34,477 bases of DNA, taken from positions 1 through 34,477 of the forward strand of contig CAZFKY010000001.1 in assembly GCA_964519485.1 (NCBI GenBank), written 5' to 3'. Each line of letters opens with the position of its first letter. The stretch's first letter is position 1. The translations under genes were made by a program, and so were the position numbers. Shown here piece after piece: positions 6,782 through 30,118 of this stretch. Origin of the DNA: an uncultured Candidatus Saccharibacteria bacterium. Its GTDB lineage: Bacteria > Patescibacteriota > Minisyncoccia > Phycocordibacterales > UBA9973. The notes below the pieces were generated by a model that was not told the origin of the DNA, did not search any database, and saw nothing but the letters and a program-made list of their open reading frames with translations.

Positions 6782-8236
6782 TTAGACTTCCTTAATTTCG
6801 TTACTAATGACTTCTTCTGCTGCTTCAATGTCTTTTTTAAATTGAGTGATAAAAGCACGCTCATCTGGGGCAAGAGGTTGCAAAGCTTTTATTTTCTTTA
6901 GAATTTTCATTTGTTCTTCTGCGTCTTCTTCCAAGATAGAAAAGCTCTTATTTACCATAGATTTTGCATGAGCCAATCTCTTGCGCATATCTTCTCTATA
7001 ATGAAGTACTTTATACCAACCCCAGGTAGAAATAAAGATGAGCATTATTATCACGGCTACCATCGGTATAAGTAGAGAGAAAGTATTTACTACATTATTC
7101 ACGATAGTATCAGATTTTAATACATTGACCTTGATAGATTCAGATTTAGAGCTCTCAGTGCCGCCTTTGGTCTTACTATAAGCAGTAATCTCATATACAC
7201 CGCTATTTGCTTTGTCAGAAACATAAGTAAATACACCCTTGTCATCAGCCTTAATTTTATAAGTATTGTTTAAAACATTATCTACCTCACCCAAAGAAGA
7301 TGTAGAATTATTAAGTACAGCAGACACATCCATATATACATCGATACTTGGATCAGCCAAACCTTTCACTACTATATATTCTTTTTCTTTTATATTTTCA
7401 GAGTATTCAGTAAAAGATGGTGTGATGAGCCCACTGATATTGAAAGAGTCCGTATTAGAAACCACATCGTTATTTATAGTATCCATAGATACCTTGAGGG
7501 TGTGGCTACCCTTAGGCAAAGCTGGTGCTTCGTATATACCTGAAGATTGACTCTCCCAAGGATATGACACATCATCAATACTAATCCTATAATTAGAATT
7601 TTTCTTTTTTCCTGTACTAGAGATCAAGAACTTGGTGACAGAATCTACACTATCCTTCTTTTTCAACTCTTCTATTTGAATACTAGGTGCTGGTTTATCT
7701 TTCTCTACCACTGGAGCTGGGGCTGTCACTGGAGGAGTCTCTTTTACTGGCGCAGTATTTATAGTAAAATTCGCCTGACCAGATTTAGATATTATATTTG
7801 TGCCCTGACCATCGTTTGCCAAGACAGAAGAGGAGTTAAATTTTATATTAGCAGAACCAGTAGATTTTGCCTTGAAGGACAAAGTGGCTACAGTACCACT
7901 AGATCCAGTATATCCAGACAAGATAACGCCTTCCATATCTATGGTGCCCAGAGAATTTGAATAAGTCGGCTCCTGTGCCCAAAGAGTAATAAGAGAACCA
8001 GACTTTGATACCGAATTTAAAGAAAGTATATCCTGAGAAAACTTTAGTGAGCCAGAGACAGCATTGGCTGATTCACCACCTGTAGATAGTAGTATTTTTA
8101 CGGTAATAGTATCTCCTACTTTATAGGTTCCAGATGAAGGAGATAAGTTTAAATCAGCTGCAAAAACATTTTGTGCAGAAAAAAATAATATAAATAAAAA
8201 TAAAATAGAGAAAAGTACTTTAGAAACTTTTATCAT
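6782..8236 (-). CDS. Surface protein: signal peptide, cohesin-like domain, Pro-rich linker, Ig-like domains, C-terminal TM anchor and an ~85-aa charged cytoplasmic tail
   Basis: Signal peptide is MIKVSKVLFSILFLFILFFSAQNVFA. The cohesin-like block (nt ~7817-8158) reads LNLSPSSGTYKVGDTITVKILLSTGGESANAVSGSLKFSQDILSLNSV..GTVATLSFKAKSTGSANIKF. The TM segment is FSLLIPMVAVIIMLIFISTWGW, followed by the tail REDMRKRLAHAKS..EEVISNEIKEV. Confidence 0.7.
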   Translation of the reverse strand: MIKVSKVLFSILFLFILFFSAQNVFAADLNLSPSSGTYKVGDTITVKILLSTGGESANAVSGSLKFSQDILSLNSVSKSGSLITLWAQEPTYSNSLGTIDMEGVILSGYTGSSGTVATLSFKAKSTGSANIKFNSSSVLANDGQGTNIISKSGQANFTINTAPVKETPPVTAPAPVVEKDKPAPSIQIEELKKKDSVDSVTKFLISSTGKKKNSNYRISIDDVSYPWESQSSGIYEAPALPKGSHTLKVSMDTINNDVVSNTDSFNISGLITPSFTEYSENIKEKEYIVVKGLADPSIDVYMDVSAVLNNSTSSLGEVDNVLNNTYKIKADDKGVFTYVSDKANSGVYEITAYSKTKGGTESSKSESIKVNVLKSDTIVNNVVNTFSLLIPMVAVIIMLIFISTWGWYKVLHYREDMRKRLAHAKSMVNKSFSILEEDAEEQMKILKKIKALQPLAPDERAFITQFKKDIEAAEEVISNEIKEV

Positions 8237-8242
8237 ACTTAA

Positions 8243-8248
8243 ATTATA
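8243..8248 (-). promoter_or_regulatory. Perfect TATAAT 6 nt upstream of ATG 8236; it overlaps the TAA stop of the upstream gene
   Basis: Minus strand reads agg-gTATAAt-ttaagt-ATG. It could be an internal leaderless-type promoter, or a coincidence created by the GTA TAA codons. Confidence 0.25.
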
Positions 8249-9077
8249 CCCTAACTCTCTTTAAATATCTATACAAAAAGTAAATAAATAGTGTTGATAA
8301 CAACAATAATAGATACATATAAGGCGAGACCACAGTAGAGGAAGAAAAATTACCATTTAGATCATACGCTTTCACTTTAAAATAATAAAATGGTGTCTGA
8401 TTTTTTAATAAATAAGGACTATCCGTATTTACACAAGAGAAAAATTCACAGACTTGATATTGGCCAATACCTGAACCTTTGTCATTGGTACTAAAAACAA
8501 TAAAATATTTGCCATCAAAAATGGCTGGATCTCTAGAACGCACCACAGAAAAACTCTCTGGTGCAATTTTGTCATCCAACACAAAATTAGGATCAGCCTT
8601 ACCATCTAAATTAGGGGTAATTTTAATAGAATCATTAAATACAGTATTTTTTACGACAGTACCCTTACCATCATTTAAAAAAGTACTTACATTATTTAAA
8701 GATAACTTTGCCAAACCTATAGCCTTTGCCCTAAACACCACTTGAAATACTTCCCCCTTATTAACTAAAACACCTCCGGGGGTTATGCCAGAAAAATGAA
8801 TCAATCCTGGTATTTTGTTTTCTGGTTTTTCTACCCAAAAACTGACAAAAGAAGATCCTGTATTTATGACCTCTATTTGGAGTAGACTTTTATCATAAGA
8901 TAAATCACCTTCTAGGGTGTTTATCTGCTCTCCTTCGGTATTTAAATAGACAGTGCTAGTAAAAGTTGTACTTTCAGGTTTAATCTTGCTGTCAGATTCC
9001 AAACTCAAACTAGCAGCAAAAGATTTATCTGCCACAAATAACAAAACTATAACAAATATAAATTTAAATTTTTTCAT
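8244..9077 (-). CDS. Surface protein: signal peptide, cohesin-like domain, Ig/FN3-like domain and C-terminal TM anchor
   Basis: Signal peptide is MKKFKFIFVIVLLFVADKSFA. The cohesin-like block (nt ~8673-9014) reads LSLESDSKIKPESTTFTSTVYLNTEGEQINTLEGDLSYDKSLLQIEVINTG..GEVFQVVFRAKAIGLAKLSLNN. The C-terminal anchor is YMYLLLLLSTLFIYFLYRYLKRVRV. Confidence 0.65.
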   Translation of the reverse strand: MKKFKFIFVIVLLFVADKSFAASLSLESDSKIKPESTTFTSTVYLNTEGEQINTLEGDLSYDKSLLQIEVINTGSSFVSFWVEKPENKIPGLIHFSGITPGGVLVNKGEVFQVVFRAKAIGLAKLSLNNVSTFLNDGKGTVVKNTVFNDSIKITPNLDGKADPNFVLDDKIAPESFSVVRSRDPAIFDGKYFIVFSTNDKGSGIGQYQVCEFFSCVNTDSPYLLKNQTPFYYFKVKAYDLNGNFSSSTVVSPYMYLLLLLSTLFIYFLYRYLKRVRV

Positions 9078-9078
9078 A

Positions 9079-10401
9079 TTATCCAGTCCAATAATAAGCC
9101 ATAATACTAAAGTCGATTAAATTAATCTTGCCATCGCCATTTAATTTACTAGCATCAAAAGAAGTTGAAGCATTATTTAAATTTTTCTTATACCAAAAAG
9201 CAGCAATAGAAAAGTCTACTAGGTTCACCCGACAATCTCCATTCAAATCTCCTTTAGCTGGACATTTCTTGGTCTTATCTACTTCAGTGTTTTTATTACC
9301 TACCGTAAAAGCCACTACCTTACTATAAGAACTAATTTGACCATCTTTAGCTGATTTTGATTTAGCATTGTGATCTCCTAGCTCAAGAGGTGAAGAATCT
9401 ACCACTTGGAGATACACACCCTGAGCATCTGCATTTACTTTTTTGAAGATTTCTTCTTCTGAGTGGATAGAAATAGTAATTTCACTAGAAGGTATAGATT
9501 GACCAAAGAAAGTTATATTATCTCCTTTTTTAACCTGACTTTTATCTACTCCAAGAGTCGGCGCTAAAAAGATGCCTCCGATATTTGTGGTTGAACCAGA
9601 AGTCAAAGATACTGGGAAAGTAAGGAGGGATGATCTATTACCTTGGTAGTCTTCGGAGTAAACAGAGAAAATATAATTACCAGCATTTAAATTATTTACA
9701 GTTATAGTGAAATTCGCATCACTACCAGCCACAGTAGAAGATAATATTTGTGCATCTTTGAGTAGAGTCACATTACTACTCGGATAAGCCCTTCCCGAAA
9801 ATACAGCGGATGCATCAGAAGAAACTATGAAAATTCCGCCGCCTCCGCCGCCTCCGCCTCCGCCGCCATTATTATTGTTATTACTAGAAGCTACTGGTGT
9901 AGCAGAGACTTCATCGGATTCACTTAAGAGTATCCCAGAAGCATAAGATCGGATCTTAAAATAATAATGCGTGCCATTCGTAAGACCAGTTTTAGTAGTA
10001 GTCAAAACATCTCCAACAGAAGTATAAACATGACCACTGCCTGAAGTTGTACTTACACCTAACTCATAACTAGTAATATTTGCCAGAACCCCCACAGAAG
10101 CTGTCCAAGAAATTATTGCTTGTGAATCACCGGCTGTAGCTGATACTACTGGTGATGTAGCTATTGGAAAATAAAGCAATCCTATATTATGAAGAAAACT
10201 AATACTAGAACTCTGCCCAATATCGAGCTCACCAGTACTGCTAATATATTGGAAACTAGAAGAACTGGACTGACCGCCACCGATAGTATTTATAGGATTT
10301 TCTACTTTAAAACTAGGACTAGATACATCTGCTCTAGCTGAAGAATAAAATAAAAAACTAAAAACTAAAATAATTAAAAGGTTTTTCTGAAAAACTTTCA
10401 T
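9079..10401 (-). CDS. Secreted FN3/Ig-domain protein with a C-terminal dockerin
   Basis: Signal peptide is MKVFQKNLLIILVFSFLFYSSARA. The FN3-like block (nt ~9892-10155) reads PVVSATAGDSQAIISWTAS..YELGVSTTSG..TGLTNGTHYYFKIRSYA. An N5G11 linker, two Ig-like segments and the dockerin follow. Confidence 0.85.
   Translation of the reverse strand: MKVFQKNLLIILVFSFLFYSSARADVSSPSFKVENPINTIGGGQSSSSSFQYISSTGELDIGQSSSISFLHNIGLLYFPIATSPVVSATAGDSQAIISWTASVGVLANITSYELGVSTTSGSGHVYTSVGDVLTTTKTGLTNGTHYYFKIRSYASGILLSESDEVSATPVASSNNNNNGGGGGGGGGGGIFIVSSDASAVFSGRAYPSSNVTLLKDAQILSSTVAGSDANFTITVNNLNAGNYIFSVYSEDYQGNRSSLLTFPVSLTSGSTTNIGGIFLAPTLGVDKSQVKKGDNITFFGQSIPSSEITISIHSEEEIFKKVNADAQGVYLQVVDSSPLELGDHNAKSKSAKDGQISSYSKVVAFTVGNKNTEVDKTKKCPAKGDLNGDCRVNLVDFSIAAFWYKKNLNNASTSFDASKLNGDGKINLIDFSIMAYYWTG
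9082..9270 (-). other. Dockerin module (two Ca-binding loop-helix segments)
   Basis: GDLNGDCRVNLVDFSIAAFWY and KLNGDGKINLIDFSIMAYYW form a duplicated D-x-N-x-D-x-x-(I/V)-N-x-x-D-F motif, as in type I dockerins. Confidence 0.85.
9835..9882 (-). repeat. Imperfect trinucleotide tract encoding N5-G11 (inter-domain linker)
   Basis: Plus strand reads tccgccgcctccgccgcctccgcctccgccgcc followed by attattattgttatt. Confidence 0.85.
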
Positions 10402-10408
10402 TGTTTTA

Positions 10409-10417
10409 ATTATATCA
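10409..10417 (-). promoter_or_regulatory. Extended -10 element TGaTATAAT, 7 nt upstream of ATG 10401 (dockerin gene)
   Basis: Minus strand reads tt-TGa-TATAAT-taaaaca-ATG, with no SD sequence. It lies immediately downstream of the hairpin terminator. Confidence 0.4.
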
Positions 10418-10435
10418 AATAAAAATACCTACCTA

Positions 10436-10462
10436 CAAACAAAAAACACCATTTCTGGTGCC
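10436..10462 (-). terminator. Rho-independent terminator downstream of the 139-aa gene
   Basis: Minus strand reads GGCACCA-GAAA-TGGTG followed by TTTTTTGTTTG. The stem is 5 bp, or 7 with G:U pairs, and a T-run follows. Confidence 0.5.
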
Positions 10463-10491
10463 TTTTGTTTTTTGTAGACTTAATTCAAATA

Positions 10492-10911
10492 TTAAGGCTT
10501 CTTTGGAGTTGTGGTAGATGTACTACTTGGTGGAGTAACCCCTTTTTGATTACCAATATTTAAAGGTGCTACATCGATAATCTTGTTTAGGGTAACACTG
10601 TACAATACAGCCTTTTTGGCTTGAGCATATATAAGCACCTTGTCTCCTTTTTGAGCATTTGCAAAGAAAGATTGATCTTTTAAAGCTTCAGGGTCAGATA
10701 CGGTAGCTACTGTTGGACTCTCACCTACAGGCAAGATTGCCAACTTTGAAACCTTAGCTACTAAATCAGCTACCTCTTTTTGAGCTATAGCTTGAGGATT
10801 TTGCTTCAACACTCTCAATTGAGAGTAAAAATAACCAGCCAAAACCACAGCTATGATAGCTATAAATGGCACCTCAACACGCATTAAATTCTTTTGTGAC
10901 ATATTTTCCAT
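10492..10911 (-). CDS. Small membrane-anchored protein with an exported Ser/Thr/Pro-rich tail, function unknown
   Basis: The N-terminal anchor is VPFIAIIAVVLAGYFY. A soluble domain (..PTVATVSDPEALKDQSFFANAQKGDKVLIYAQAKKAVLY..) follows, and the protein ends in PPSSTSTTTPKKP. Confidence 0.6.
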   Translation of the reverse strand: MENMSQKNLMRVEVPFIAIIAVVLAGYFYSQLRVLKQNPQAIAQKEVADLVAKVSKLAILPVGESPTVATVSDPEALKDQSFFANAQKGDKVLIYAQAKKAVLYSVTLNKIIDVAPLNIGNQKGVTPPSSTSTTTPKKP

Positions 10912-10951
10912 ATTATTTGTTAATAACTAATAATTTATAGATAAGAATATA

Positions 10952-10995
10952 CTTACCAACCAAATAATTATACAGCAAGCTTATTTGGTAAGCAA
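10952..10995 (-). promoter_or_regulatory. Interrupted 12-bp hairpin after the giant gene, overlapping a promoter-like TTGCTT-17 nt-TATAAT
   Basis: Minus strand reads CTTACCAAATAA-gcttgctgtataa-TTATTTGG(TT)GGTAAG. The -35 TTGCTT (10995-10990) and the -10 TATAAT (10972-10967) lie within it. No clean T-run follows, so the terminator and promoter readings remain unresolved. Confidence 0.3.
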
Positions 10996-11004
10996 TAGTA
11001 TATT

Positions 11005-14000
11005 TTAGGGTGCATCCCCGCCGCCACCTCCACCGCCACCTCCTTGAGAAGCTAGGCTGTCTGCATAGAAATCATCTCCACGGGTATCACTAGAATTACC
11101 CTTTCCTACCAATCCTGGTCTACCTGTAGAATACGTAGAATCAGTAGTCGTGGTTACGACCACACCATCTTGTTTTAGAGTAAGTGTGGTGCCTGTGATT
11201 TCAAGTCTGATTCTCTCACCGGGATTAAATGCTGTACCAGTGTACAATGTAGTAGGAGCACCGGAAGACCATTTTATAATTTTTACATTTGTACTATCAG
11301 AATAAGCACCATAGCCACTCTGTGCGCCAGACTGCAATCTAACTCCGACACCCATGTAATTTCCGGAAGATAAAGCCGGTAATACAAGCTCAGCAAATTG
11401 ATTATCATTAAATGCTCCCACGTTCCATCTTGCCATAGTATCTACTCCAGCAGCATTACTCATAACTGCATTACTATTTAAGGCAAAAGCTCCATTCAAA
11501 ACATTCCAGCTCGAATCATAACCCACCAAAGGCACACCATTAGACCCTGTAAAGGCTTGAGGCAATTCACCACCACCGCCACCAGAATTACCTTCTCCAC
11601 CGCCACCATTAAATCCTCCGTGGCCAAAACCTCCACCACCGACAGCTGTACCACCACCAGAATCTCCTCCACCACCTCCACCACCGACAGCTGTACCACC
11701 ACCAACAGCCACAAAGCCCCAACAAGAACCATTATTTACACCCACTTTAAATATATGATCTTTCGGACCAGAGTAATTTTGACTAGCGTTACATCCCACA
11801 TCAGACAAAACTACGAAATCTAATATTCCATTTGGAGTTGTAGAAAAAGTGATATACCAAATAGAGCCATTATCAGGAGAACCGATCCAAATAGGCTCTG
11901 TAGGGGTACCGTGGAAATTCATCTGATTTGCAATAATAAGATTCCCGGCGACCGCAAAATTTATTCTGTGTCCTGGTGTTTCATTATTTAAATTATAATA
12001 AGTAGCAGATTTTATTAACACCACATCTGGTATTGGATCTAAAACCACTGTGCCATTATTATGAGTAAATGTGCCTTGCACTGCAAAATTTCCTCGCAAT
12101 GTAAGGATACCTGTATTTGAAGCAATTACATTACCATGAGTATCAAAATCAGCATTTACAGTAAGATTTGGGTCATTGGTATTTAGATTTATATTTGGAT
12201 TACCAGCATTGGTTCCATCTAAGCGATGAACAATCATAGTGCCAGAAGAAGGCACAAAAGTTCCCGGACCTTTCATAGTCAAATCATAATAAGTAATATT
12301 ACCTGGAATATTTGTAGTATTACCGGAACCTGAATTAAAGATTATATTACTACCGGTAGTAGAAGCAGAGAGGGTTCCATTTAATGTAATTGGTGTACCA
12401 TTGTTCAAAGAAAATTCTAGCGTATGCGCACCCACTGAAAGAGTTTGATTAGCATCGATAATAGCGCTTGTTGCAACAACATCAGATAATATAGAAAGTG
12501 TTGTATTTCCTGTATTTGCAGAAATTTGAATAATACCCAAATCAGAATTATTACCATTTGTATTTAAAGTCTGAGTACCAGCCAAACCTTTTGCAAATAT
12601 TACCTTGTTGCTTGCACTTTTATTTACAGTAGGTCCAGAAGAAACTACAGTATTACCACGAACAGTAATATCAGAAGATGGTAATGTAAATGTGCCTGAA
12701 CCTGTAAGTGTGAGGTTATTATAAATACTAGCAACCACATTTTGAGTTGATCCAGAATAAACCACAGTACTATTGCCTGAAGCAAATGTACCGTTAATCA
12801 CGAGAGGTGTGGCCCCTGTAAGCTCTAAAACTCTATTATCTGAGCCCATGTTAAGGGTAGTATTTAAAGATACAGTAACAACACCAACAATAATATTTCC
12901 AGTACCACCAGTAGAGACAGCTACGGCCTGTGACCCAGATGAAGAAGACAAAGTCAAAGTATTAAAAGTCCAATTATTGTTTCCAGATGTTTGACCAAGG
13001 TTTTTAGTAGAAGCTACTTGCATAGTCACAGGGACATCGGTATTTACAGTTCCTGCGCCAGTCATATTTCCGTTTACTATCAAGCTTCCTCCGCCAGTAC
13101 TACCGTTCAAAGTACCATCTACCACAACATCACCAACCAAGGTAGTATTCGCACTACTTCCCAAAGACAGGGTGGCATTATTCGATATAGTGGTAGTGCC
13201 GTTTATAGTCACAGTAGGGTTGTTCACAGCAAAAGAAAATGCTGCTGGATTAGAGCCGTTACCCACTGTAAAATATCCGTTCACAATAGTAGTTCCCGAA
13301 AGGAATTTACTAGCAGAAGCACCTGCGCTTGGACTAATTTGCAAATTATTATAAGTAAGAGCAGGAAGATTTGTCCCACCTGGTCCAGTATAAATCACAG
13401 TAGAACTTCCCGCAGAAAGTGTAGACTTACTGTTAGCAAAAGACAAAGTGCTAGTGGTTAAGCTTGAAGAACCTAGTGATAATGTATCTGTGTTAGTAGA
13501 GCCAGCATTTCCTACAGTAAGAGTTCCAGACACAACATTGCTGCCCGACATATTATATGTAACCCCTGTCAATGCGTCAGAAGTACCTCCGAGTGTCAGA
13601 TTACCGTAAGTCGTAGTCTCTACATCAGTTGTTCCTGTTTGTCCTTCGTAATCAATTGTACTACTAGTGCCACTAAATATACCGTTGTTTATAAATGGTC
13701 TTGATGATCCAGTTCCAGTGCCTGTAATTGTTGTTGTGTAAAAAGATGGGGCAAAAGTCTGAGACGCATCTACGAGCAAAGTCGTCACTTTGGTATCACC
13801 ACTCAAAGCCAAAGTCGTAGCTCCAGAATTTGCTGATATTTGTATATTACCTAAATCACTACTACCACCATTTAGGTTCTGAGTACCTCCACCACCTTTA
13901 GCAAATATTATTTTATTGCTTGCACTCTTGGTGACTGTAGCACTAGCATTCACAACCAGATTACCTCTGATAGTAATATCTGAAGCTGGTAATGTGTATG

Positions 14001-23000: not shown

Positions 23001-26000
23001 TCAGTGAGTTGATACTCACAGTGCTTGCCGCCACATTACCTGTCAATTTCACGTTTGCATTTGCAGCCAAGGTAGCAGAATATTCACCAGAAAATCCAGC
23101 ACCATTCAATAAACGTAGTCCATTGGTATTACCCACATTGTAGGTCACCATATCGCTACCTGTACCAGATAGAGAGCTATCTCCAAATGCACCTTTAATC
23201 ACGCTTATAGTAGTAGAGTTGGCAGCACCTGCCGCACCAGTGAGGGTCGGTGCTGTAGTAAACATGAGTGTTGATACATTGGCCGCTGGAGTAGAGCCAA
23301 AACTTGTCCCACGAAATAATACCGTAGCTCCAGCTGTTCTACTGAAACTAGTAGCAGCTCCAAATGTAAGCGTGGTGGATCCACCAGCTCCCGGAATCAC
23401 GGTCACAATATTATGACCAGAAGACAATAATAATTGCCCCATTGTCTCTGAAGATGTACCAGCTGCGTTACCAATAAAATTCAAATTACCGTCGTTCATG
23501 GTTAAGACCAAAGAATCTAATATACGACTAGCTACAGCAGTGGTGCTATTGTCCAGTGTTAGAGTAGCAGTAGGATTTATGGTAATAGCAGATACAGACA
23601 CAGCAGACCCAGAGCCACTGATAACCACCGTTCCAGCATTTATAGTCATAGTACTACTAATAGTATTTACTCCAGTTAGAGTAACTGTGTTGTTTGTGTT
23701 TTTTGTGACAGCCACTGCTCCAGCCAAAATACCGCTCACAGTTCCACTCTCAAGAGTATACGCGGTACCAGTAAGTGCTGCCGAGTTTGCAATAGTACCA
23801 CCCACGAGTGTTACCGTACCTATAGTGTCAGCATTGGCACCATTATTAAAAGTACCTCCATTCATTATCAGGTTAGTAGCCACCAGAGTTGTGGTTGCAG
23901 CATAAGCAAAAGTTCCCGCATCAACACGGGTGATACCAGTATAAAGATTGGCTCCTGTCACTGTAAAAGTTCCCGAACCCTGCTTGATGATAGATAAAGC
24001 CACTGCGGGTATTACCGCACTAAAGGTGATATTACCTGAACCACCTACATACAAAGAAAAAGCTCCACCCACAGCTCCTGTTATAGTCATCGTCCCAGAA
24101 TTGTTTGTAATACGGGAATCACTAGCTTGAGTAATAGAACCACCAAAAGTACCACTGCTACCGACAATGGATCCGCCATTACCAATTCCACGTCCATTGA
24201 TAGTCAACGTTTCAGTTGTTGGTAATGTAAAACCATTAAAATCAAATACAGCGCCACTGTAAACAAAGACACCCCCAGCGTTAGTTCCGACAGGTGTGTT
24301 GGTGGCGCCTCCACTAGCACCAAGTTTTAGTATGCCAAGGTTTACACTTAAAGCTCCAGTAAAAGTATTTTGTCCAGATAAAGTCCAAGTACCGATACCA
24401 ATTTTTGTCACTGTTGCTGATCCTGTTCCTATAATACTTGCCAAGGTTCCGACACCAGATCCACCTAAAGTAAGCGCGAATGTCGCTCCAGATATTGTCC
24501 CAGCATTAGTCAAACTAATATCACCCGAATCAGCTTTTATTAAAACACCAGTAGAACCTAATGTAATTAAACCACTGTAAGTAACAGCTGACCCCGAACT
24601 ATTTATTAAAGAACCTGAAGCAAAATCTCCCAATCCATACCCAACTCCGTTTAATGTCAAAGGCTCAGCTGTAACTAAATTAAAACCATTCAAATCTAGA
24701 CGAGCACCTAAAGCTACTGTGGTTATGCCTCCGGTAGTTCCAAGTGGAGTATTTGCTCCACTTCCTGCGCCACCAAGTTTTAATGTACCCATACTGATGG
24801 TGGTCGCTCCTGTATAAGTGTTGTTACCCGAAGCAATAAAATTTCCTATACCATCTTTAGTCAAAGCACCTGTAGTCAGAGCTATCACTCCTGAAATAGT
24901 GATATCACTAAAACCTCCGACTGTTAGACCTATAGCTGCACTATTGATAGCGCTACTTATAGTAAGAGCTCCGTAGTCAGCATTTATTCTAGCTGCTGCT
25001 GTGAGAGTGATCGTTCCGCTATAGCTCACGGGTGTGTTGACACTATTCATGAGTGCACCCATGTTGCTATTTCCGGCTGCCACCGAAGTACCAGGACCGT
25101 AACCCAATCCAGCCAAAGAGAGTGGCTCTGTAGTTGATAGCGTATATCCATTCAAATCAAGAGCAGCGATATTGGCAACGGTAGTTGCTCCGACAGCATC
25201 ACCGAGTGGAGAATTTACACCATCTCCGGCACCACCAATCTTCAAGATACCACTAGTGATAGTGGTTGCTCCTGTATATGTGTTGTTGCGAGTCATAAGG
25301 ACCACACTGTCTGCAGAAGTATTTGTAGCTATACGAGTCACAACAACTCCAGTACCTCCAATAATAGCGCTCACTGTTCCCTCTCTAAAGTTATATGAGG
25401 TACCAGTGAGCACACCTGTTGAACCAGTGATGGTTCCGTTTTGAAGAATAACTGCACCCACTGAATCAGTAAAGGTAGCAATATCTAAAATACCTCCATT
25501 CACAGTGACATTACCTGTTGAAATAGCATTATTTATGCCATAAAGAAGTGTGCCTTCATTTACAGAGGTAAGTCCTGTATAAGTCTTTGCGGTAGAAAAA
25601 GTAAGAGTGCCAGCCCCATCTTTAGTCAAACCACCAGTAGTGGTGATAAGTGAAGAAATGGTTATATTACTAGAAGCATTTATAGTAAGCTCAACTGAAC
25701 CTCCTGCTATGGTCGTATTTGCACCATCAATAGTAGCACTAGAAGCTGTATTTAAAACATTACCAGAAGTAAGTGTCACGACTTGGGCACTGCCAGGGTT
25801 GGATATAGATCCACTCCCACTCAATATAAGAGAATTTATAGTAGAAGTAACCGCCGCTGTGCTGGCTGTGAGTTTTACATTGGCATTTGTTGTTGCAAAA
25901 TCACTTGCATACTCTCCACTAAAACCTGCACCGTTGAGCAAGCGTAAACCATTGGAATTTCCTCTACCATAAGTCACCATATCTGTACCGTCCCCACTCA

Positions 26001-28188
26001 AAGAATCATCTCCGAAAGCTCCTTGGATAATACTGAGAGTTGTAGAATTTGGAGCACCTGCACCACCGGTCAGTGTGGGAGCAGTCTTAAACAAAAGTGT
26101 AGATACTCCAGCCCCCGGACTAGCACCCAAAGAAGTACCTCTAAATAAAACAGAGGCTCCGGCCGTGCGTGTCAGAGATGCAAATTGCATTGTAGTAGAC
26201 CCTCCCGACCCGGGCGTGATAGTAACGACATTGTCACCCGATTGCGTTGCTATACCTATAGTGAGAGCTCCGGCGGTCTCATCTGAAGCTTCAGAACTTG
26301 AACCAATAAAATTAAAATTACCACCATTCATAGTGAGGGCTAGGGTATCGGCAATACGATCAACCACATCAGTAGTGCTATTGTCGAGTGTAAGTGTAGA
26401 TCCAGCACTTATGGTCATAGTAGTAGAAAGTGGCATAGCACCAGAACTATTCAAAACCAAAGAACCACCATTTATATTTGTAGCTCCAGTAAAGTTATTG
26501 AAGGCTTGCAGAGTCAAAACACCACCATTGGTTTTTGTCAGTGTTGCAGTCGTACCATATATAGGAGCAGTGGAGGTAAAAGTAGTATTTCCCTCACCAC
26601 CGATAGTCAAGCCCAAGGTCGTAGCTGAGAGACCCTTGCTATCTATAGTAAGAGTAGTGCTTATGTCGGATTCAATCATCGCTGCCGCACCTAGGGTGAG
26701 TAATCCAGTGATAGTGTTATTACCAGTAGTGTTTCTTATTGCGCCACTATATAAATGACCTGTTCCTGAAAATGTAATATACTCTGGTATTGATAAACCC
26801 GTGCCGTCTATCTGCAAAGTGGCTCCTGCAGTAACAGTAGTAATACCATCTATAGTACCCAAGGCCAAGCTGTCTTGAATTTTTAGTACGCCGAGGCTCA
26901 CAGTGGTAGCACCAGTATATTTATTGGCTCTTGTTAGAGTCACAGTTCCTGTTGTACTTTTTGTTAATGTACCAGCTGCACCAGAAATAATCGCACTAAT
27001 AGTACCATTATAGACTGTCCAAGTAGCACTAGAAAGCACGCCTGTTGACCCAGTAATTGTACCATTGGCTAAATCCAGTGTTCCCAAAGTGACGGTTCCC
27101 ACCATATCAGAAAAAGTTGAAATATCTAGAGTTCCGCCTGTTATCGTAACAGCACTAGAAAGAAGCGCATTGTCTACTCCATACAACACAGTTCCTGCAT
27201 TAATGGTAAATACACCCGAATTGGTATTTGGGAAATTAAAAGTTATTGTCCCAGAACCATTTTTAGTAATAGAGCCACTACCCGATATGGGTGCTTTAGA
27301 AAAAGCCATATTACCAGATCCATCAAAAACCAATGCAAAATTTCCAGTAATACCCCCTGTCATATTAAGAGTACCGGCGTCTGAAGCTATTTCTGTACCA
27401 CCAGTTGAAGTTAAAGTAATTAGACCACCGAAAGTATTTGTACCACTAATATTTCTCAATGCGCCACCATTAGACACTCCATATCCTCTCAGTGTTAGAG
27501 CTTCATAACTGACATTAATATCGCCTTGAAGCTCCAACGCAGCACCACCCACAACTTCTGTACCAGCTAGAATTGTACCCAGTGCTGTAGAATGACGGGC
27601 ATTAATTACTCCAACATTTATTTTAGTAATACCACCATATGTATTGGCTCCAGTTAGTATCAACGTTCCAGTTCCTTCTTTGTTAAAACCACCCGCACCA
27701 GATATTCTGCCACTTATTGTTAAAGATTCAGATGTATTGTTTACATAAATATCACGAACAACATCTATACGAATATCAAGAGCAATAGTGTTTCCACCAG
27801 AAGCCACACTATCTGTAATACCAGCAAGACCTTGCCCTAATATTATTCTATTACCAGATAATGTATAACCACTGCCAGATAAAGTAATAGAGTTTATGAT
27901 TGTGTTTTCTGTGAGATCGTTTGAGTTTGAAAGATTAGAAGCTCCACCCGGGAACACAAGATCATCACCAGTGACAGGTGCAGTACCTCCCCAGTTGCCA
28001 GGATTAGACCAGAGATTGCTAGATGCTCCTGTCCAAGTCCTAGTGGCTGCTTCTACTTTTGGAGTGTTAAAAGAAAATAATACTATTAAAATAGAAATAA
28101 AAAATCCAAGCCTAAAAAACGACTTTGTAAAATTAGTTTTGTGAAATTTATCTACAACATTTCTCAAGATATATTTATTATACAACAA
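11005..28188 (-). CDS. Giant (5,727-aa) secreted fibre/adhesin-like protein with a PATR-repeat N-terminal half, beta-helix-like super-repeats and a C-terminal lectin-like domain
   Basis: A single uninterrupted 17,184-nt frame. It has an N-terminal signal peptide and more than a dozen GxGTLxLxGxNTYTGxTTIxxGTLxLG-type repeats. Composition is Thr/Gly/Ser/Ala/Asn-rich and it ends in a poly-Gly tail. The frame starts at a TTG (28188, or 28167), and there is no in-frame ATG for roughly the first 290 codons. Confidence 0.93.
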   Translation of the reverse strand: MLYNKYILRNVVDKFHKTNFTKSFFRLGFFISILIVLFSFNTPKVEAATRTWTGASSNLWSNPGNWGGTAPVTGDDLVFPGGASNLSNSNDLTENTIINSITLSGSGYTLSGNRIILGQGLAGITDSVASGGNTIALDIRIDVVRDIYVNNTSESLTISGRISGAGGFNKEGTGTLILTGANTYGGITKINVGVINARHSTALGTILAGTEVVGGAALELQGDINVSYEALTLRGYGVSNGGALRNISGTNTFGGLITLTSTGGTEIASDAGTLNMTGGITGNFALVFDGSGNMAFSKAPISGSGSITKNGSGTITFNFPNTNSGVFTINAGTVLYGVDNALLSSAVTITGGTLDISTFSDMVGTVTLGTLDLANGTITGSTGVLSSATWTVYNGTISAIISGAAGTLTKSTTGTVTLTRANKYTGATTVSLGVLKIQDSLALGTIDGITTVTAGATLQIDGTGLSIPEYITFSGTGHLYSGAIRNTTGNNTITGLLTLGAAAMIESDISTTLTIDSKGLSATTLGLTIGGEGNTTFTSTAPIYGTTATLTKTNGGVLTLQAFNNFTGATNINGGSLVLNSSGAMPLSTTMTISAGSTLTLDNSTTDVVDRIADTLALTMNGGNFNFIGSSSEASDETAGALTIGIATQSGDNVVTITPGSGGSTTMQFASLTRTAGASVLFRGTSLGASPGAGVSTLLFKTAPTLTGGAGAPNSTTLSIIQGAFGDDSLSGDGTDMVTYGRGNSNGLRLLNGAGFSGEYASDFATTNANVKLTASTAAVTSTINSLILSGSGSISNPGSAQVVTLTSGNVLNTASSATIDGANTTIAGGSVELTINASSNITISSLITTTGGLTKDGAGTLTFSTAKTYTGLTSVNEGTLLYGINNAISTGNVTVNGGILDIATFTDSVGAVILQNGTITGSTGVLTGTSYNFREGTVSAIIGGTGVVVTRIATNTSADSVVLMTRNNTYTGATTITSGILKIGGAGDGVNSPLGDAVGATTVANIAALDLNGYTLSTTEPLSLAGLGYGPGTSVAAGNSNMGALMNSVNTPVSYSGTITLTAAARINADYGALTISSAINSAAIGLTVGGFSDITISGVIALTTGALTKDGIGNFIASGNNTYTGATTISMGTLKLGGAGSGANTPLGTTGGITTVALGARLDLNGFNLVTAEPLTLNGVGYGLGDFASGSLINSSGSAVTYSGLITLGSTGVLIKADSGDISLTNAGTISGATFALTLGGSGVGTLASIIGTGSATVTKIGIGTWTLSGQNTFTGALSVNLGILKLGASGGATNTPVGTNAGGVFVYSGAVFDFNGFTLPTTETLTINGRGIGNGGSIVGSSGTFGGSITQASDSRITNNSGTMTITGAVGGAFSLYVGGSGNITFSAVIPAVALSIIKQGSGTFTVTGANLYTGITRVDAGTFAYAATTTLVATNLIMNGGTFNNGANADTIGTVTLVGGTIANSAALTGTAYTLESGTVSGILAGAVAVTKNTNNTVTLTGVNTISSTMTINAGTVVISGSGSAVSVSAITINPTATLTLDNSTTAVASRILDSLVLTMNDGNLNFIGNAAGTSSETMGQLLLSSGHNIVTVIPGAGGSTTLTFGAATSFSRTAGATVLFRGTSFGSTPAANVSTLMFTTAPTLTGAAGAANSTTISVIKGAFGDSSLSGTGSDMVTYNVGNTNGLRLLNGAGFSGEYSATLAANANVKLTGNVAASTVSINSLTLNGFGITNAAATITMASASLSGNILMNSATSIAGANTTIGITTFELDVLATANATISAVIGTATTGLLTLSGSGNTITLSAANLYTGITYVNDITLTWGVSNALSSGGLTIVDGTANLNGNSDTIGALSLRVGTVTTGAGTLTLGGTFTTIADANKTSLVTGNLGLGAARTFDIADGLMDNDAVITAVISGAFAPTKSTGTGVLVFAGDNSYTGLTTVSAGTLRLGASGGVTNTPLGTTGAGTTISGANSALDLNGYTLGTSEALTLSGALGAGALQNQSSAAVSYSGLITLGAASTIISNYGDINITNTGNITGNTFALTIGGAGNGTLSSNLNTTTGTLTKNGLGVWTISGATSTFTGAVTVSAGTLKLGAAGGASNTPLGTSAGGVSVTSGAIFDLNGFTLGTAETATINGTGIASTGAFINSSNNTISYTGNIVMGAASRVANHGTGVWTVSGAISGNFALTVVAVGNFTQATNSVWSGTGTLVKEGSGTLILGGQNTMTGAMTVSTGKLQLGASGGATNTPLGTNAGGVTVSDGAVLDLSTFSLGGASTYETLNLSGTGIGNGGALTSSATGNSNFGAMTVSSNTRITNNGAGILTFGGTITAANLRNLAIDGSGPVTISGVYGASATTATITKYGSGTLTISAVSVTTGLVRINGGTLKYGIADALATPAVTVAGGTWDLGGFSEGGTTLIGAVTLIDGSIVNTGGAATIASSAAYTVENGTISAVLAGGAIALNKNTGGTVTLSAANTFTGLTTINAGTLAWGINDALSSGNLTVIGGFANLATFTDTVGTVTLTNGGITSSSGVLTGTSYAFSSGTVSAILAGAIGMTKTTAGTVTLSGSNTYTGTTTITLGTLRANSTTAIGNGSVTNTLIFNGGTLQAGGNISSPSTRAVTLTSVGVIDTNGYTVTLAGTVGSASGLTKNGIGTLSITGAVTLGAALNVNNGTFDQASTLVANSTITVASAGVWQNIGTGQITLASTVTNSGIITINSNNGTQCVDGADSILIRSSVNNTTRAWSGTGTFNIYNVDVDDMTGSVTIYTSTKSGDTTWTVGGCGTTVSGTSNTTGTVKFAINGVLSGQSAVIGGGTWSASNVAISSGQVLVAWIDAVADAAESTAIAKYDGTGNMTGIVLNTNVLSIGSVDDQSMTLTNLDPTSIGYDCTDDEDVMYSVSSSTLNVQGTGCAGGANSYTGETLQIESGDTLVLSGSENINTENLTVTGTLTAATTGTITLAGSGTPLVVSGTLTNTGNTIAYTGSSPAITALTTYNNLTVNGSGTATIGGTTTVAGTLTATTAVANNSTLTVSGGLAGATLTNGATGVLNIGFASAPSITTLDATATGNVVNYTAAAPNCKVTTYDDLNFTGSGTVTCAVTTVTGDLATSGTVSWTTGASLAVTGNITVGNGTTLTQGTGFTLGAVNLTIGAGASGIFAGGNSAINLTGNLLVNTGGAFTSTSGTLTIGGNFTNTPATTTGFAHNNGTVKFNTTSTATIAGATTFYGFDVSGIGAAKTVRFTAGTTFNFNGPANSFVVTGTSGNLITITSTSTAVWLADFLNTQNTVTYVNLQHSGCSSSAVVSLDSTSVDDPTATINDSTCWSFPVVGVVVSGTIYTNEGVTPLTGVSLTVRVAKNGVLAQSASSVSGTGAYTLPAVGSAVAGDVFTIFVDSATPSQQASAVTKVADGTNPVTIDLYAQRVIVRNENGVATTNTNMGAYDSANNANIKFTESAGNLTVASGNKLLVWTGNTFTPGGTVTTTAASTSGNPDGDVLIQSGATLAMGTNALSVGGDFTNGGTFTYGGGQTTTFTATGTGFTIEDGSSNFDTLVFNGSGGGWTFSSGLTTVGGVTITAGTLTTSANTLTIPGDLTVNGTLSGSGAGSITVNGAVVGTGTINISGNTFEQRVSAAKNFGTTSGTNNWTFNNLTFSNSHASSPFTITTQSGTGGITVTGSLLVGKAGDAVGAVTTLNAGGKTWTLSSASTPLVILSSPQGVFTGATSTLDFTGNGVTIPAQPAGTTFNNVGFKPSSSSQQILSAGTYTIGGALTVGDGTNAGVSAVLNDPAFTVNGTTTIAANAIFTDGDGVFNFVGDLTVDGTLSGGAVHNVFANGNVVGVGRINLFNATFEQRVASSKNFGTTSGSNNWDFATLKFSNSSGSPVTITASSGGSGGIYGFFSVNVGLGADSASTTLDAGSRTWVTGQASTGGSTNGSLVVNASRGVFTPNASTFGFEGFSTGNSVASATYYNLNIGSISDTVAGGTFTASGNITVQNVLTVGNASSTNADTFVLSSTTLTLSGTGTPLVFAGSSKGLLSPGTSTVKYTGNGATSTAASYNNLELSPAGATQNIMGAGTYNIGGTLTVGNGTNNGATAATNNPIINVTGATTIAANATFTTGGGAVSLADLTVNGTMSGSGAGNISATGNVAGTGTINISGNTFTHNFAGINKNFGTTSGTNNWTFGSLTFTGSSTTSTIQSGSGSITVSGVMTISSSTSLDSGSKTIILSGTGTPLVISGTFIPNTGTVQYTGATSNVAPTTYNNITLGGAGTYTLPASDITIRGNWISNGGTVTKSASNKIIFAKGGGGTQNLNGGSSDLGDIQISANSGATTLALTGNTKVTTILVDASQTLSTVASTFTVTGSGSGALRPFINNGTTITNINMDYEGTSATDIETTNVGYNTLSLGTTMDLASGVTYTMNGNVIVAGILAVGNNSSFNADILDLGSTTLTLSSGIGTPLSLSGSNKGTIVYGTSTVRYTGSVLGVVTSAAASYYNLEFLSSSSTGITIASGTTNVANNLVIGDGSHAGVITTNNPVINVTGSTTIAAGAVYGVASGVSSITTNDLIVNGTINKSGSGTGTINVSGNLTGSGVIDFSTCFGTTCIVNIDVASNKNFGGSGSIPAGDWKFQVLNINSSPSSTVTLNSAGTSNIYVGYSLTVGAGTTLDLGSGNRNLYFTSTAFSSPFVITGSFVPNTGTVAYTGTLQNVTATTYNNLTLGGSSTYTLPASDITIRGNLVVNASATVTKSASNKIIFAKGGGGTQNLNGGSSDLGNIQISANSGATTLALSGDTKVTTLLVDASQTFAPSFYTTTITGTGTGSSRPFINNGIFSGTSSTIDYEGQTGTTDVETTTYGNLTLGGTSDALTGVTYNMSGSNVVSGTLTVGNAGSTNTDTLSLGSSSLTTSTLSFANSKSTLSAGSSTVIYTGPGGTNLPALTYNNLQISPSAGASASKFLSGTTIVNGYFTVGNGSNPAAFSFAVNNPTVTINGTTTISNNATLSLGSSANTTLVGDVVVDGTLNGSTGGGSLIVNGNMTGAGTVNTDVPVTMQVASTKNLGQTSGNNNWTFNTLTLSSSSGSQAVAVSTGGTGNIIVGVVTVSLNTTLNMGSDNRVLELTGATPLVINGTFASGNSTVVYSGSTQNVVASIYNNLTLTGSGTFTLPSSDITVRGNTVVSSGPTVNKSASNKVIFAKGLAGTQTLNTNGNNSDLGIIQISANTGNTTLSILSDVVATSAIIDANQTLSVGAHTLEFSLNNGTPITLNGTLSASTTGSNIIFNSGSGNTTNIPGNITYYDLTMKGPGTFVPSSGTMIVHRLDGTNAGNPNINLNTNDPNLTVNADFDTHGNVIASNTGILTLRGNFAVQGTFTHNNGTVVLDPIPDVVLIKSATYYNLNNETPGHRINFAVAGNLIIANQMNFHGTPTEPIWIGSPDNGSIWYITFSTTPNGILDFVVLSDVGCNASQNYSGPKDHIFKVGVNNGSCWGFVAVGGGTAVGGGGGGGDSGGGTAVGGGGFGHGGFNGGGGEGNSGGGGGELPQAFTGSNGVPLVGYDSSWNVLNGAFALNSNAVMSNAAGVDTMARWNVGAFNDNQFAELVLPALSSGNYMGVGVRLQSGAQSGYGAYSDSTNVKIIKWSSGAPTTLYTGTAFNPGERIRLEITGTTLTLKQDGVVVTTTTDSTYSTGRPGLVGKGNSSDTRGDDFYADSLASQGGGGGGGGGDAP
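11050..11560 (-). other. C-terminal concanavalin-A/LamG-like (lectin-type jelly-roll) domain of the giant protein
   Basis: LPQAFTGSNGVPLVGYDSSWNVLNGAFALNSN..ARWNVGAFNDNQFAELVL..YMGVGVRLQSGAQSGYGAY..IKIIKWSSGAPTTLYTG..GERIRLEITGTTLTLKQDGVVV..GRPGLVGKGNSSDTRGDDFYA. The alternating beta pattern and the W/F/Y landmarks resemble LamG/ConA-like domains. This call rests on recognition only. Confidence 0.5.
11560..11710 (-). repeat. Gly-rich linker with a direct DNA repeat
   Basis: It encodes GGGTAVGGGGGGGDSGGGTAVGGGGFGHGGFNGGGGEGNSGGGGGE. On the plus strand, ctccaccaccgacagctgtaccaccacca occurs twice (about 11631-11659 and 11676-11704). Confidence 0.8.
13814..13939 (-). repeat. 126-nt high-identity core, copy A
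   Basis: 120 of 126 nt are identical to 15183-15308 (offset exactly 1,369 nt). The flanks of the same repeat unit are clearly more diverged, roughly 70% by eye. Confidence 0.9.
15183..15308 (-). repeat. 126-nt high-identity core, copy B
   Basis: Same comparison as 13814-13939, counted by hand: six mismatches (T/A, T/C, A/G, A/T, G/A, G/A). Confidence 0.9.
20150..28040 (-). repeat. PATR (autotransporter-associated beta-strand repeat, TIGR02601/PF12951-type) array, ~2,600 aa
   Basis: Examples: KEGTGTLILTGANTYGGITKINVGVINA, KDGAGTLTFSTAKTYTGLTSVNEGTLLYG, KDGIGNFIASGNNTYTGATTISMGTLKLGG, KSTGTGVLVFAGDNSYTGLTTVSAGTLRLGA, KEGSGTLILGGQNTMTGAMTVSTGKLQLGA, KTTAGTVTLSGSNTYTGTTTITLGTLRAN. Confidence 0.85.
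28048..28188 (-). other. Sec-type signal peptide of the giant protein
   Basis: ..KSFFRLGFFISILIVLFSFNTPKVEA|ATRTW shows a basic n-region, a hydrophobic core and a V-E-A cleavage motif. Confidence 0.7.
28177..28182 (-). promoter_or_regulatory. TATAAT hexamer at the 5' end of the giant gene
   Basis: Minus strand reads ttg-TATAAT-aaatatatc-TTG(28167). The hexamer lies inside the ORF if translation starts at TTG 28188, and 9 nt upstream of the alternative TTG at 28167. Confidence 0.25.
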
Positions 28189-30109: not shown

Positions 30110-30118
30110 ATTAAATAA

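Follow-up and report, generated by a model that had tools for sequence, protein, structure and literature searches.

What do cohesin and dockerin modules do in a locus that encodes a giant secreted protein and no recognisable carbohydrate-degrading enzyme? The question is raised by a stretch of 34,477 nucleotides (nt) of an uncultured Candidatus Saccharibacteria bacterium (contig CAZFKY010000001.1 of assembly GCA_964519485.1), referred to below as the window. It contains a row of five genes, encoding a giant protein, a small membrane protein, a secreted dockerin protein and two membrane-anchored cohesin proteins (designated cohesin-1 and cohesin-2). Comparison with related loci distinguished the last three genes, not all five, as the conserved functional unit (hereafter the trio). 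We consider it fairly probable that the trio encodes a dedicated membrane-embedded cohesin-dockerin complex, which anchors cell-surface proteins and is not an enzyme scaffold. The features of the locus, with the basis of each assignment (ORF, open reading frame; aa, amino acids), are as follows:

11005-28188, minus strand: giant secreted protein, 5727 aa, TTG start (ORF and translation)
10492-10911, minus strand: 139-aa bitopic membrane protein (ORF and hydropathy)
10441-10460, minus strand: short hairpin CACCAGAAATGGTG followed by a T-run (T6), between the 139-aa gene and the dockerin gene (direct sequence reading)
10409-10414, minus strand: TATAAT, 7 nt ahead of the ATG of the dockerin gene (direct sequence reading)
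9079-10401, minus strand: 440-aa secreted dockerin protein (ORF and Pfam)
9082-9267, minus strand: dockerin module, aa 379-440 of the 440-aa protein (PF00404)
8244-9077, minus strand: cohesin-1, 277 aa (ORF and PF00963)
6782-8236, minus strand: cohesin-2, 484 aa (ORF and homology to cohesin-1)

ORF calls and translations placed all five genes co-directionally on the minus strand, with intergenic gaps of 93, 90, 1 and 7 nt (from the giant gene through the 139-aa, dockerin and cohesin-1 genes to cohesin-2). This reproduced in full the layout given in the initial annotation of the window, including the coordinates and the 93-nt gap after the giant gene.

The cohesin-dockerin trio

The 440-aa dockerin protein begins with a signal peptide (MKVFQKNLLIILVFSFLFYSSARA), which fell below the threshold of the hydropathy scan and was assigned by reading the sequence. 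It is followed by a triple 'SSxSF' beta-motif (aa 25-82, nt 10156-10329), an FN3 domain (aa 89-166), two immunoglobulin (Ig)-like domains (approximately aa 190-375) and the C-terminal dockerin. In Pfam searches the protein passed the gathering scores of Dockerin_1 (PF00404; 27.2 bits, gathering score 22.9) and Big_6 (28.7 bits, gathering score 27.6), and remained just under that of fn3 (24.6 bits, gathering score 25). A dockerin is defined by two duplicated segments, each composed of a 12-residue calcium loop (Asp/Asn at positions 1, 3, 5, 9 and 12) and a helix, and this is the architecture found in the 440-aa protein, whose two loop-helix segments (DLNGDCRVNLVD-FSIAAFWY and KLNGDGKINLID-FSIMAYYW) are strongly alike. 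Such likeness is a trait of dockerins with two equivalent binding faces. The consensus of 79 orthologues is KGDLNxDxRVNLVDFSIAAYWYKR...[ED]xxxLNGDGKVDLVDFSIMAYYWTG. Loop 1 is fully canonical. In the orthologues its positions 1 and 12 are invariant Asp, the Asp/Asn positions of the calcium loops are conserved, both helices are almost invariant and the FSI motif of each is nearly so. The dockerin is also the most conserved module of the trio, with a mean p-distance of 0.375, compared with 0.50 for cohesin-2 and 0.64 for cohesin-1.

A cohesin was defined as a nine-stranded beta-sandwich of approximately 140 aa recognised by PF00963. Cohesin-1 is composed of a signal peptide, a cohesin domain (aa 22-154, nt 8616-9014), an FN3-like domain (aa 178-250) and a C-terminal transmembrane helix (approximately aa 250-275; flagged at aa 249-268 by the hydropathy scan), followed by a very short basic tail. 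Its cohesin was recognised both by Pfam (PF00963; 27.4 bits, gathering score 24.1) and in the AlphaFold2 (AF2) model, which was built on a 113-sequence alignment and reached a predicted local distance difference test (pLDDT) score of 92.5. When this model was compared with PDB structures using Foldseek, the top 50 matches were all cohesins, including the non-cellulosomal 2w1n, 2vo8, 2jh2 and 2xdh, the last of archaeal origin. The best match was 2w1n, the cohesin+FN3 double module of GH84C from Clostridium perfringens (E 3e-11); for 2vo8, the target-normalised template modelling score was 0.83, with a root mean square deviation of 2.6 Å.

Cohesin-2 carries a signal peptide, a cohesin domain (aa 27-165, nt 7742-8158), a Pro-rich linker, Ig-like domains and a transmembrane helix (aa 381-408, nt 7013-7096), and ends with a charged, helical, cytoplasmic tail of 76 aa (nt 6785-7012). 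It gave no direct cohesin match in Pfam at E <= 0.1, and its cohesin was recognised through homology: BLASTP aligned it with cohesin-1 (E 2e-19, 30% identity over the cohesin module), the cohesin-1 family profile matched it at E 6e-37, and its orthologues bear precomputed PF00963 matches. Judged by these sequence comparisons, cohesin-2 is a paralogue of cohesin-1. N-terminal hydrophobic segments were flagged in both proteins by the hydropathy scan. The orthologues of cohesin-1 have almost no tail, whereas the median tail of cohesin-2 is 76 aa (73 orthologues with a detected C-terminal transmembrane helix). The family alignments revealed invariant residues common to both paralogues (N in an early strand, S..W..P and NDGxG), which fits a conserved protein-protein interface.

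The cohesin-like and dockerin modules postulated in the initial annotation are therefore genuine, as judged by Pfam, BLASTP, AF2/Foldseek and profile searches, and its view of the partners as single-cohesin, membrane-embedded proteins agrees with hydropathy and with the tails of the orthologues. Of the Pfam matches it had anticipated, those of the 440-aa protein to Dockerin_1 and of the 277-aa protein to Cohesin were obtained, but not a direct one for the 484-aa protein. The hydropathy scan recovered the transmembrane helices and most N-terminal segments of the proposed topologies, but not the signal peptide of the 440-aa protein, and the cytoplasmic tail has 76 aa, not approximately 85.

One genome per species was scanned, which revealed relatives in 145 genomes (at least 145 species); 80 loci of approximately 20 kb were fetched and annotated by calling ORFs anew, followed by phmmer and hidden Markov model searches. 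Cohesin-1 homologues occur in Nomurabacteria, Nealsonbacteria and 'Paceibacterota', and the bacterium of the window is itself a member of Patescibacteria near 'Nomurabacteria'/Paceibacteria. According to the record titles, the 80 loci all belong to Patescibacteria or to unclassified bacteria, save for a few automatic labels, and the titles cover Nomura-, Kaiser-, Wolfe-, Taylor-, Falkow-, Uhr-, Doudna- and Gracilibacteria. The cassette is also present in the enrichment-culture organism Ca. Microsyncoccus archaeolyticus PMX.50.

The conserved order is dockerin protein, cohesin-1, cohesin-2. The dockerin gene lies immediately upstream of cohesin-1 in 65 of the 66 loci with enough flanking sequence to be scored, and a cohesin-2-type gene immediately downstream in 69 of the 73 scorable loci, with a single dockerin gene per locus (79 proteins in 79 loci). 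Such an order, repeated in dozens of independent genomes, indicates more than chance. It is only this part of the initially proposed five-gene arrangement that is generally conserved; the giant and 139-aa genes accompany it in one subgroup. The conserved core of the dockerin protein across the loci is Ig-Ig-dockerin (approximately 300-350 aa). Its family includes more than 2132 homologous clusters; within the best 120 listed, sequences matching over the full length show approximately 50-68% identity, and NCBI gives some members the name 'dockerin type I repeat-containing protein'.

Some loci contain further genes around or within the trio. Extra cohesin paralogues (423-562 aa) flank it in several cases, giving three to four cohesin genes per dockerin gene (L010, 7324-8637 and 12346-13659; L011, 6624-7982; L070, 11967-14706; L088, 8556-9905 and 14226-15914). 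Those checked (in L010, L011, L012, L028, L038, L043 and L070) combine a signal peptide with a cohesin, a C-terminal transmembrane helix and a charged tail. A gene for a 23S_rRNA_IVP / bAvd-like four-helix protein is located just upstream of cohesin-1 in L077 (3851-4195), L022, L075 and L052; in L022, L075 and L077 this position is between the dockerin and cohesin-1 genes. Proteins of the bAvd-like type serve as accessory factors in diversity-generating retroelements. A phage or prophage origin of the cassette was considered and rejected, as tblastn gave no match in 50,697 phage records.

Gene adjacency, tight spacing, the near-invariant dockerin and the invariant residues common to both cohesins together suggest that the dockerin protein and both cohesins form a three-protein, membrane-embedded complex. 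The Ig-Ig-dockerin protein, secreted by the Sec pathway, would be retained on the outside of the cytoplasmic membrane, where its calcium-type C-terminal dockerin would bind the cohesin of one or both single-pass proteins encoded directly downstream; adjacency of the genes and the structures of their products suggest this binding. Cohesin-1 would be almost devoid of a cytoplasmic part, and cohesin-2 would contribute its conserved helical cytoplasmic tail of approximately 76 aa. Such a complex probably helps to hold or organise the neighbouring large secreted surface proteins on the cell.

Genes upstream of the trio

The giant and 139-aa genes adjoin the trio only in a subgroup of loci (type A), in which the window and Nomurabacteria are included. 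The type A dockerin protein has an added N-terminal module, composed of three short SSxSF-type strands and an FN3 domain. Without correction for phylogeny, an upstream gene of at least 800 aa was found in 16 of the 18 loci with an N-terminally extended dockerin protein, compared with 6 of the 32 loci lacking the extension (Fisher 2e-6), and the 139-aa gene in 10/18 and 1/32, respectively. The link between the trio and the giant fibre, drawn in the initial annotation, finds some support in this co-occurrence; it applies to the subgroup only, and the giants are non-homologous across loci. At least four unrelated families, including a PATR type and a Peptidase_S74 type, occupy the upstream position. 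In a cross-locus comparison, the C-termini of the large upstream proteins fell into several unrelated groups, their N-termini differed and no common anchoring module was found. That the position is kept although the giants are replaced suggests selection for adjacency. In two loci (L006, 7826-8530, and L044, 3024-3698) a gene for an IS200-like Y1 transposase separates the large surface-protein gene from the dockerin gene, which fits the idea that the large gene is exchanged here.

The giant protein of the window has a signal peptide (approximately aa 1-47) and no later hydrophobic segment in the hydropathy scan. Its N-terminal half contains 13 PATR (PF12951) or 14 TIGR02601 autotransporter-type beta-strand repeats. 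The PATR-type repeat region (approximately aa 150-2680) and a second internally repetitive region (approximately aa 3590-5310) are separated by a unique middle region, which carries 8 of the 12 Cys residues of the protein. A Gly-rich linker leads to a C-terminal domain (approximately aa 5545-5715), which gave no Pfam match and which, among the fetched loci, is common only to the window and L070; the C-terminal 230 aa had no PDB sequence match. The PATR/TIGR02601 repeats and the Thr/Gly/Ser/Asn-rich repetitive sequence, typical of long beta-helical passengers, liken the giant to PATR-repeat beta-helix adhesins. It thus has the PATR/beta-helix passenger of a type V autotransporter adhesin but, unlike such adhesins, lacks the outer-membrane beta-barrel translocator and a membrane anchor: no autotransporter barrel family was detected in the C-terminal 2927 aa (Pfam and NCBIfam). 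No dockerin was matched in the giant by Pfam or by profile search, and direct reading of the C-terminus revealed no LPXTG. The giant had been described at the outset as lacking a dockerin, LPXTG, a transmembrane segment (beyond the signal peptide) and a beta-barrel, and all four absences were borne out by the scans and the reading of the C-terminus.

The 139-aa protein comprises an N-terminal transmembrane helix, a second helix, a small beta-rich ectodomain and a Thr/Pro-rich tail. It belongs to no Pfam or NCBIfam family, and forms a family of approximately 1000 clusters, the best 120 listed being approximately 65-80% identical. In its AF2 model (80 homologues, pLDDT 66) the ectodomain is predicted, at moderate confidence, as four short strands after two helices; Foldseek found nothing in PDB below E 0.18. 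The gene is flanked by the dockerin gene on its downstream side and by the large gene, or an extra cohesin gene, on the other; every additional context inspected likewise had it upstream of the dockerin gene.

In type B loci, which have no giant gene, the place directly upstream of the dockerin gene is taken by genes for one large and one or two small secreted proteins (approximately 950 and 350 aa) with a common C-terminal domain ending in ...TLTYxATANF (e.g. L037, 5758-8949; L014, 3057-8499; L047, L059 and L076). These loci also encode a signal-peptide protein of approximately 330 aa with a C-terminal transmembrane helix, which resembles WxL-interacting proteins (WxLIP). The profile of this family weakly matches the WxL-interacting protein of Enterococcus (PDB 9i25/9i1y, E 4e-4), and PF06030 (WxLIP_PGBD) was matched in 13 of 20 members, at best with E 1.6e-4. 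For the putative WxL-like domain of the secreted proteins, no similarity was detectable in Pfam or PDB.

The WxL/csc clusters of Lactobacillales and Bacillales, consisting of a small and a large WxL protein together with a WxLIP, are believed to assemble a surface platform bound to peptidoglycan (PMC10599100). They resemble the trio loci in combining a large and a small secreted surface protein with a membrane-anchored helper in a monoderm envelope, and that description mentions no cohesin or dockerin genes (PMC10599100). WxL clusters have been described almost only from these two orders. The Patescibacteria loci of the WxL-like type have the WxLIP-like gene and the two proteins with the common C-terminal domain directly upstream of the trio. 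A WxL/csc cluster is delimited by one WxLIP (DUF916-DUF3324-transmembrane helix) and two WxL-domain proteins within a few genes; family profile searches detected no WxLIP-like (A5) or WxL-like (A6) ORF in the window, which thus contains no such cluster. In both locus types, therefore, the trio is preceded by genes whose products are large secreted surface proteins and a small helper anchored in the membrane.

The gaps upstream of the trio in the window contain putative transcription signals, which are sequence patterns alone. In the gap after the giant gene (10912-11004), TTGCTT-17-TATAAT lies within an inverted repeat that is imperfect (CTTACCAAATAA / TTATTTGGTTGGTAAG). In the gap before the dockerin gene (10402-10491), the hairpin CACCAGAAATGGTG was reported by the consensus scan on the plus strand only, and the TATAAT 7 nt before the dockerin ATG might indicate that the transcript is leaderless. 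Consensus scans for promoters and terminators gave no enrichment and listed no sites in the key gaps, the weak candidates coming from manual reading. The hairpin, the T-run and the TATAAT ahead of the dockerin gene hint that the trio may be transcribed separately.

If the trio acts as an anchoring complex, its cargo in type A loci would be the variable giant beta-helix-type fibre together with the highly conserved 139-aa bitopic protein, and the extra N-terminal beta-motif and FN3 module of the dockerin protein would be a candidate coupling piece. In other lineages the cargo would be the WxL-like cluster with its WxLIP-like gene. The co-occurrence figures suggest that the adjacent fibre may be anchored through the N-terminal extension or through the 139-aa protein, and the known lifestyle of these bacteria that the fibre may serve host attachment.

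Alternative explanations

Several observations weigh against the proposed anchoring complex. More than half of the loci have no giant gene, so the fibre may be a mere neighbour; the giants have no domain in common across loci, and the co-occurrence with the N-terminal extension is uncorrected for phylogeny. Promoter-like and terminator-like signals separate the 139-aa gene from the trio. The cohesins outnumber the dockerins (2-4 : 1 per locus), which means that some of them may bind something else, and the mirror-tree analysis of distance matrices from 64 loci (partial r with the dockerin 0.21 for cohesin-1 and 0.23 for cohesin-2) does not single out either cohesin as the dockerin partner. Position 1 of dockerin loop 2 is Lys in the window, and often Lys, Arg or His in the orthologues, instead of Asp; one calcium site may therefore be atypical. 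Moreover, Peer and co-workers are said to have noted, in 2009, non-cellulosomal cohesin and dockerin modules without demonstrated partners.

Some of these observations would be explained if the giant and the trio were unrelated neighbours, the fibre being an independent, fast-evolving adhesin that is retained otherwise or released, and the trio serving another conserved envelope function. This is unlikely on balance, yet deserves serious consideration: it accommodates the trio without any giant gene in most loci, the origin of the giants from at least four unrelated families, the hairpin, T-run and TATAAT between the 139-aa gene and the trio, and the transposase gene between the giant and dockerin genes of L006 and L044. 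It is less easily reconciled with the frequency of large upstream genes in loci with the N-terminal extension (16/18, compared with 6/32 without it), with the retention of the position despite replacement of the giants, with the placement of the 139-aa gene after the large gene (or after an extra cohesin gene) and ahead of the dockerin gene, and with the secreted surface-protein genes found at the same position in giant-less loci.

The modules of the trio might, alternatively, not pair at all. The cohesin folds would then be structural or glycan/peptidoglycan-binding beta-sandwiches belonging to envelope proteins anchored in the membrane, and the dockerin a calcium-binding stabiliser or a binder of some other ligand, the genes being linked by their envelope role only. 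Outside cellulosomes, orphan modules of the cohesin-like and dockerin-like kinds are common; the fold of cohesins is a jelly-roll of generic type, sequence identity to solved cohesins is only 11-20%, PDB profile matches are weak (E 0.027), cohesin-2 fails Pfam directly and dockerin loop 2 is atypical. We nevertheless regard this explanation as improbable, because one dockerin gene and two cohesin genes are near-obligately adjacent across very divergent lineages, with tight spacing (1 and 7 nt), both dockerin helices are almost invariant and the cohesin paralogues keep the same invariant residues.

The initial annotation had favoured a general docking platform, in which the membrane cohesins, as minimal anchoring scaffoldins, present several dockerin-tagged proteins encoded elsewhere, beside an adhesin fibre. 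A search with the dockerin alone against 1.84 billion representative proteins gave 1447 matches, and the best 150 of them are nearly all C-terminal dockerins in proteins of 290-630 aa from the same Ig-Ig-dockerin family. This dockerin subtype is thus near-confined to one protein family instead of tagging many different proteins. A single dockerin protein is encoded in each of 79 loci of approximately 20 kb, no second dockerin was found elsewhere in the 34-kb window by profile search, and no carbohydrate enzymes are located nearby; the platform is accordingly unsupported, and we find it quite improbable. The two to four cohesin genes per dockerin gene, i.e. a cohesin capacity exceeding the local dockerin supply, and a few multi-dockerin proteins among distant relatives of the dockerin (P0295, P0328, P0334 and P0339) would be in its favour. 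So would a dockerin-domain protein of Saccharibacteria that is essential in Southlakia (PMC10633639), but this protein, SEML1_0315, is encoded by a solitary gene without cohesin neighbours and was ruled out as a member of the cassette.

A cellulosome-like polysaccharide-degrading enzyme complex, suggested by the mere presence of cohesin and dockerin modules, is already contradicted and can hardly be entertained, given the single-cohesin proteins in place of a multi-cohesin scaffoldin, the location of the dockerin on a non-catalytic Ig-Ig protein instead of carbohydrate-active enzymes, the lack of S-layer homology (SLH) or sortase attachment, the housekeeping neighbours (YchF, methyltransferase, VIT1 and Hsp20) and the absence of glycoside hydrolase, esterase, lyase and carbohydrate-binding module families among the window ORFs scanned with Pfam and NCBIfam, which upholds the earlier remark that the window contains no glycoside hydrolase or carbohydrate-esterase gene.

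Among the closest counterparts of the anchoring complex preferred here are the anchoring scaffoldins of cellulosomes (e.g. OlpA, OlpC and SdbA of C. thermocellum and ScaE of R. flavefaciens), in which one or few cohesins fixed to the envelope capture a dockerin partner, as the trio is proposed to do. The fold of cohesin-1 matches the OlpC/OlpA cohesins (4dh2 and 3ul4, Foldseek), and the dockerin has the two-segment calcium-loop design of cellulosomes. Unlike these scaffoldins, the trio uses a C-terminal transmembrane helix, not SLH or sortase attachment (no SLH domain was matched in the Pfam scan of the window trio). The place of a scaffoldin or enzymes as partner is taken by one non-catalytic Ig-Ig protein; no carbohydrate enzymes are encoded beside the trio, and its hosts are non-cellulolytic, ultra-small Patescibacteria. 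Use of the modules outside cellulose degradation is shared with the non-cellulosomal pairs, i.e. the glycosidase/toxin complexes of C. perfringens and the cohesin of Archaeoglobus fulgidus. In C. perfringens, however, the modules are located on secreted enzymes that pair together, whereas those of the trio reside on membrane-anchored non-enzymes and one Ig-Ig protein, encoded by a gene cassette with a fixed 1:2 make-up and with conservation across a phylum-level group.

Genomic neighbourhood and significance of the cassette

The remaining window ORFs scanned encode housekeeping and envelope proteins (VIT1, YchF, a methyltransferase, a DUF2157 membrane protein and Hsp20), as well as two Beta-lactamase2 proteins and a 1113-aa protein with a phage-head-spike-fibre-type domain. 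The tandem Beta-lactamase2-family genes (29087-31075, minus strand; 340 and 318 aa) lie between both large surface-protein genes of the window, and the product of the second (318 aa) also weakly matches D-Ala-D-Ala carboxypeptidase S11. The 1113-aa protein (31090-34431, minus strand) is a second large protein of secreted type; it matches the phage-head / gene transfer agent spike-fibre domain NF048003 of NCBIfam (E 3.5e-24) and has no Pfam match. The YchF GTPase gene (5025-6014, minus strand) recurs shortly downstream of the trio in L006, L008, L025, L041 and L044, which places the cassette in a conserved chromosomal neighbourhood and not on a mobile island. A tRNA scan of the window found none.

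As far as our literature search reaches, the cassette is undescribed: no description was found in the full-text literature on cohesins and dockerins in the Candidate Phyla Radiation (CPR), Patescibacteria or Parcubacteria, the metatranscriptome paper on PMX.50 (text and supplements) does not mention cohesin or dockerin, and the 2026 review of the phylum does not mention the cassette. Some of its members are already named 'cohesin domain-containing' or 'dockerin type I repeat-containing' by NCBI.

A broader proposal, which for now we hold as a doubtful possibility, is that this cohesin-dockerin module is the general means by which Patescibacteria fasten large appendages to their monoderm envelope, replacing sortase and SLH attachment. 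The appendages would be giant beta-helix fibres or WxL-like complexes, depending on the lineage, with one symmetric dockerin bridging two cohesins and the cohesin-2 tail coupling the assembly to the cell interior.

Little is known of how CPR/Patescibacteria construct their surface or attach to hosts, and most proteins displayed there lack annotation. An enzyme-free, membrane-anchored cassette, conserved in at least 145 species genomes and located beside giant or WxL-like proteins, would widen the known uses of cohesin-dockerin pairs beyond the cellulosome. Being small, soluble modules, its dockerin (70 aa) and its two cohesins (140 aa each) are tractable in vitro, and the cassette is present in the PMX.50 enrichment cultures. 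If the broader proposal is true, the phylum-wide fastening module would be a core part of the host-attachment apparatus of these episymbiotic ultra-small bacteria.

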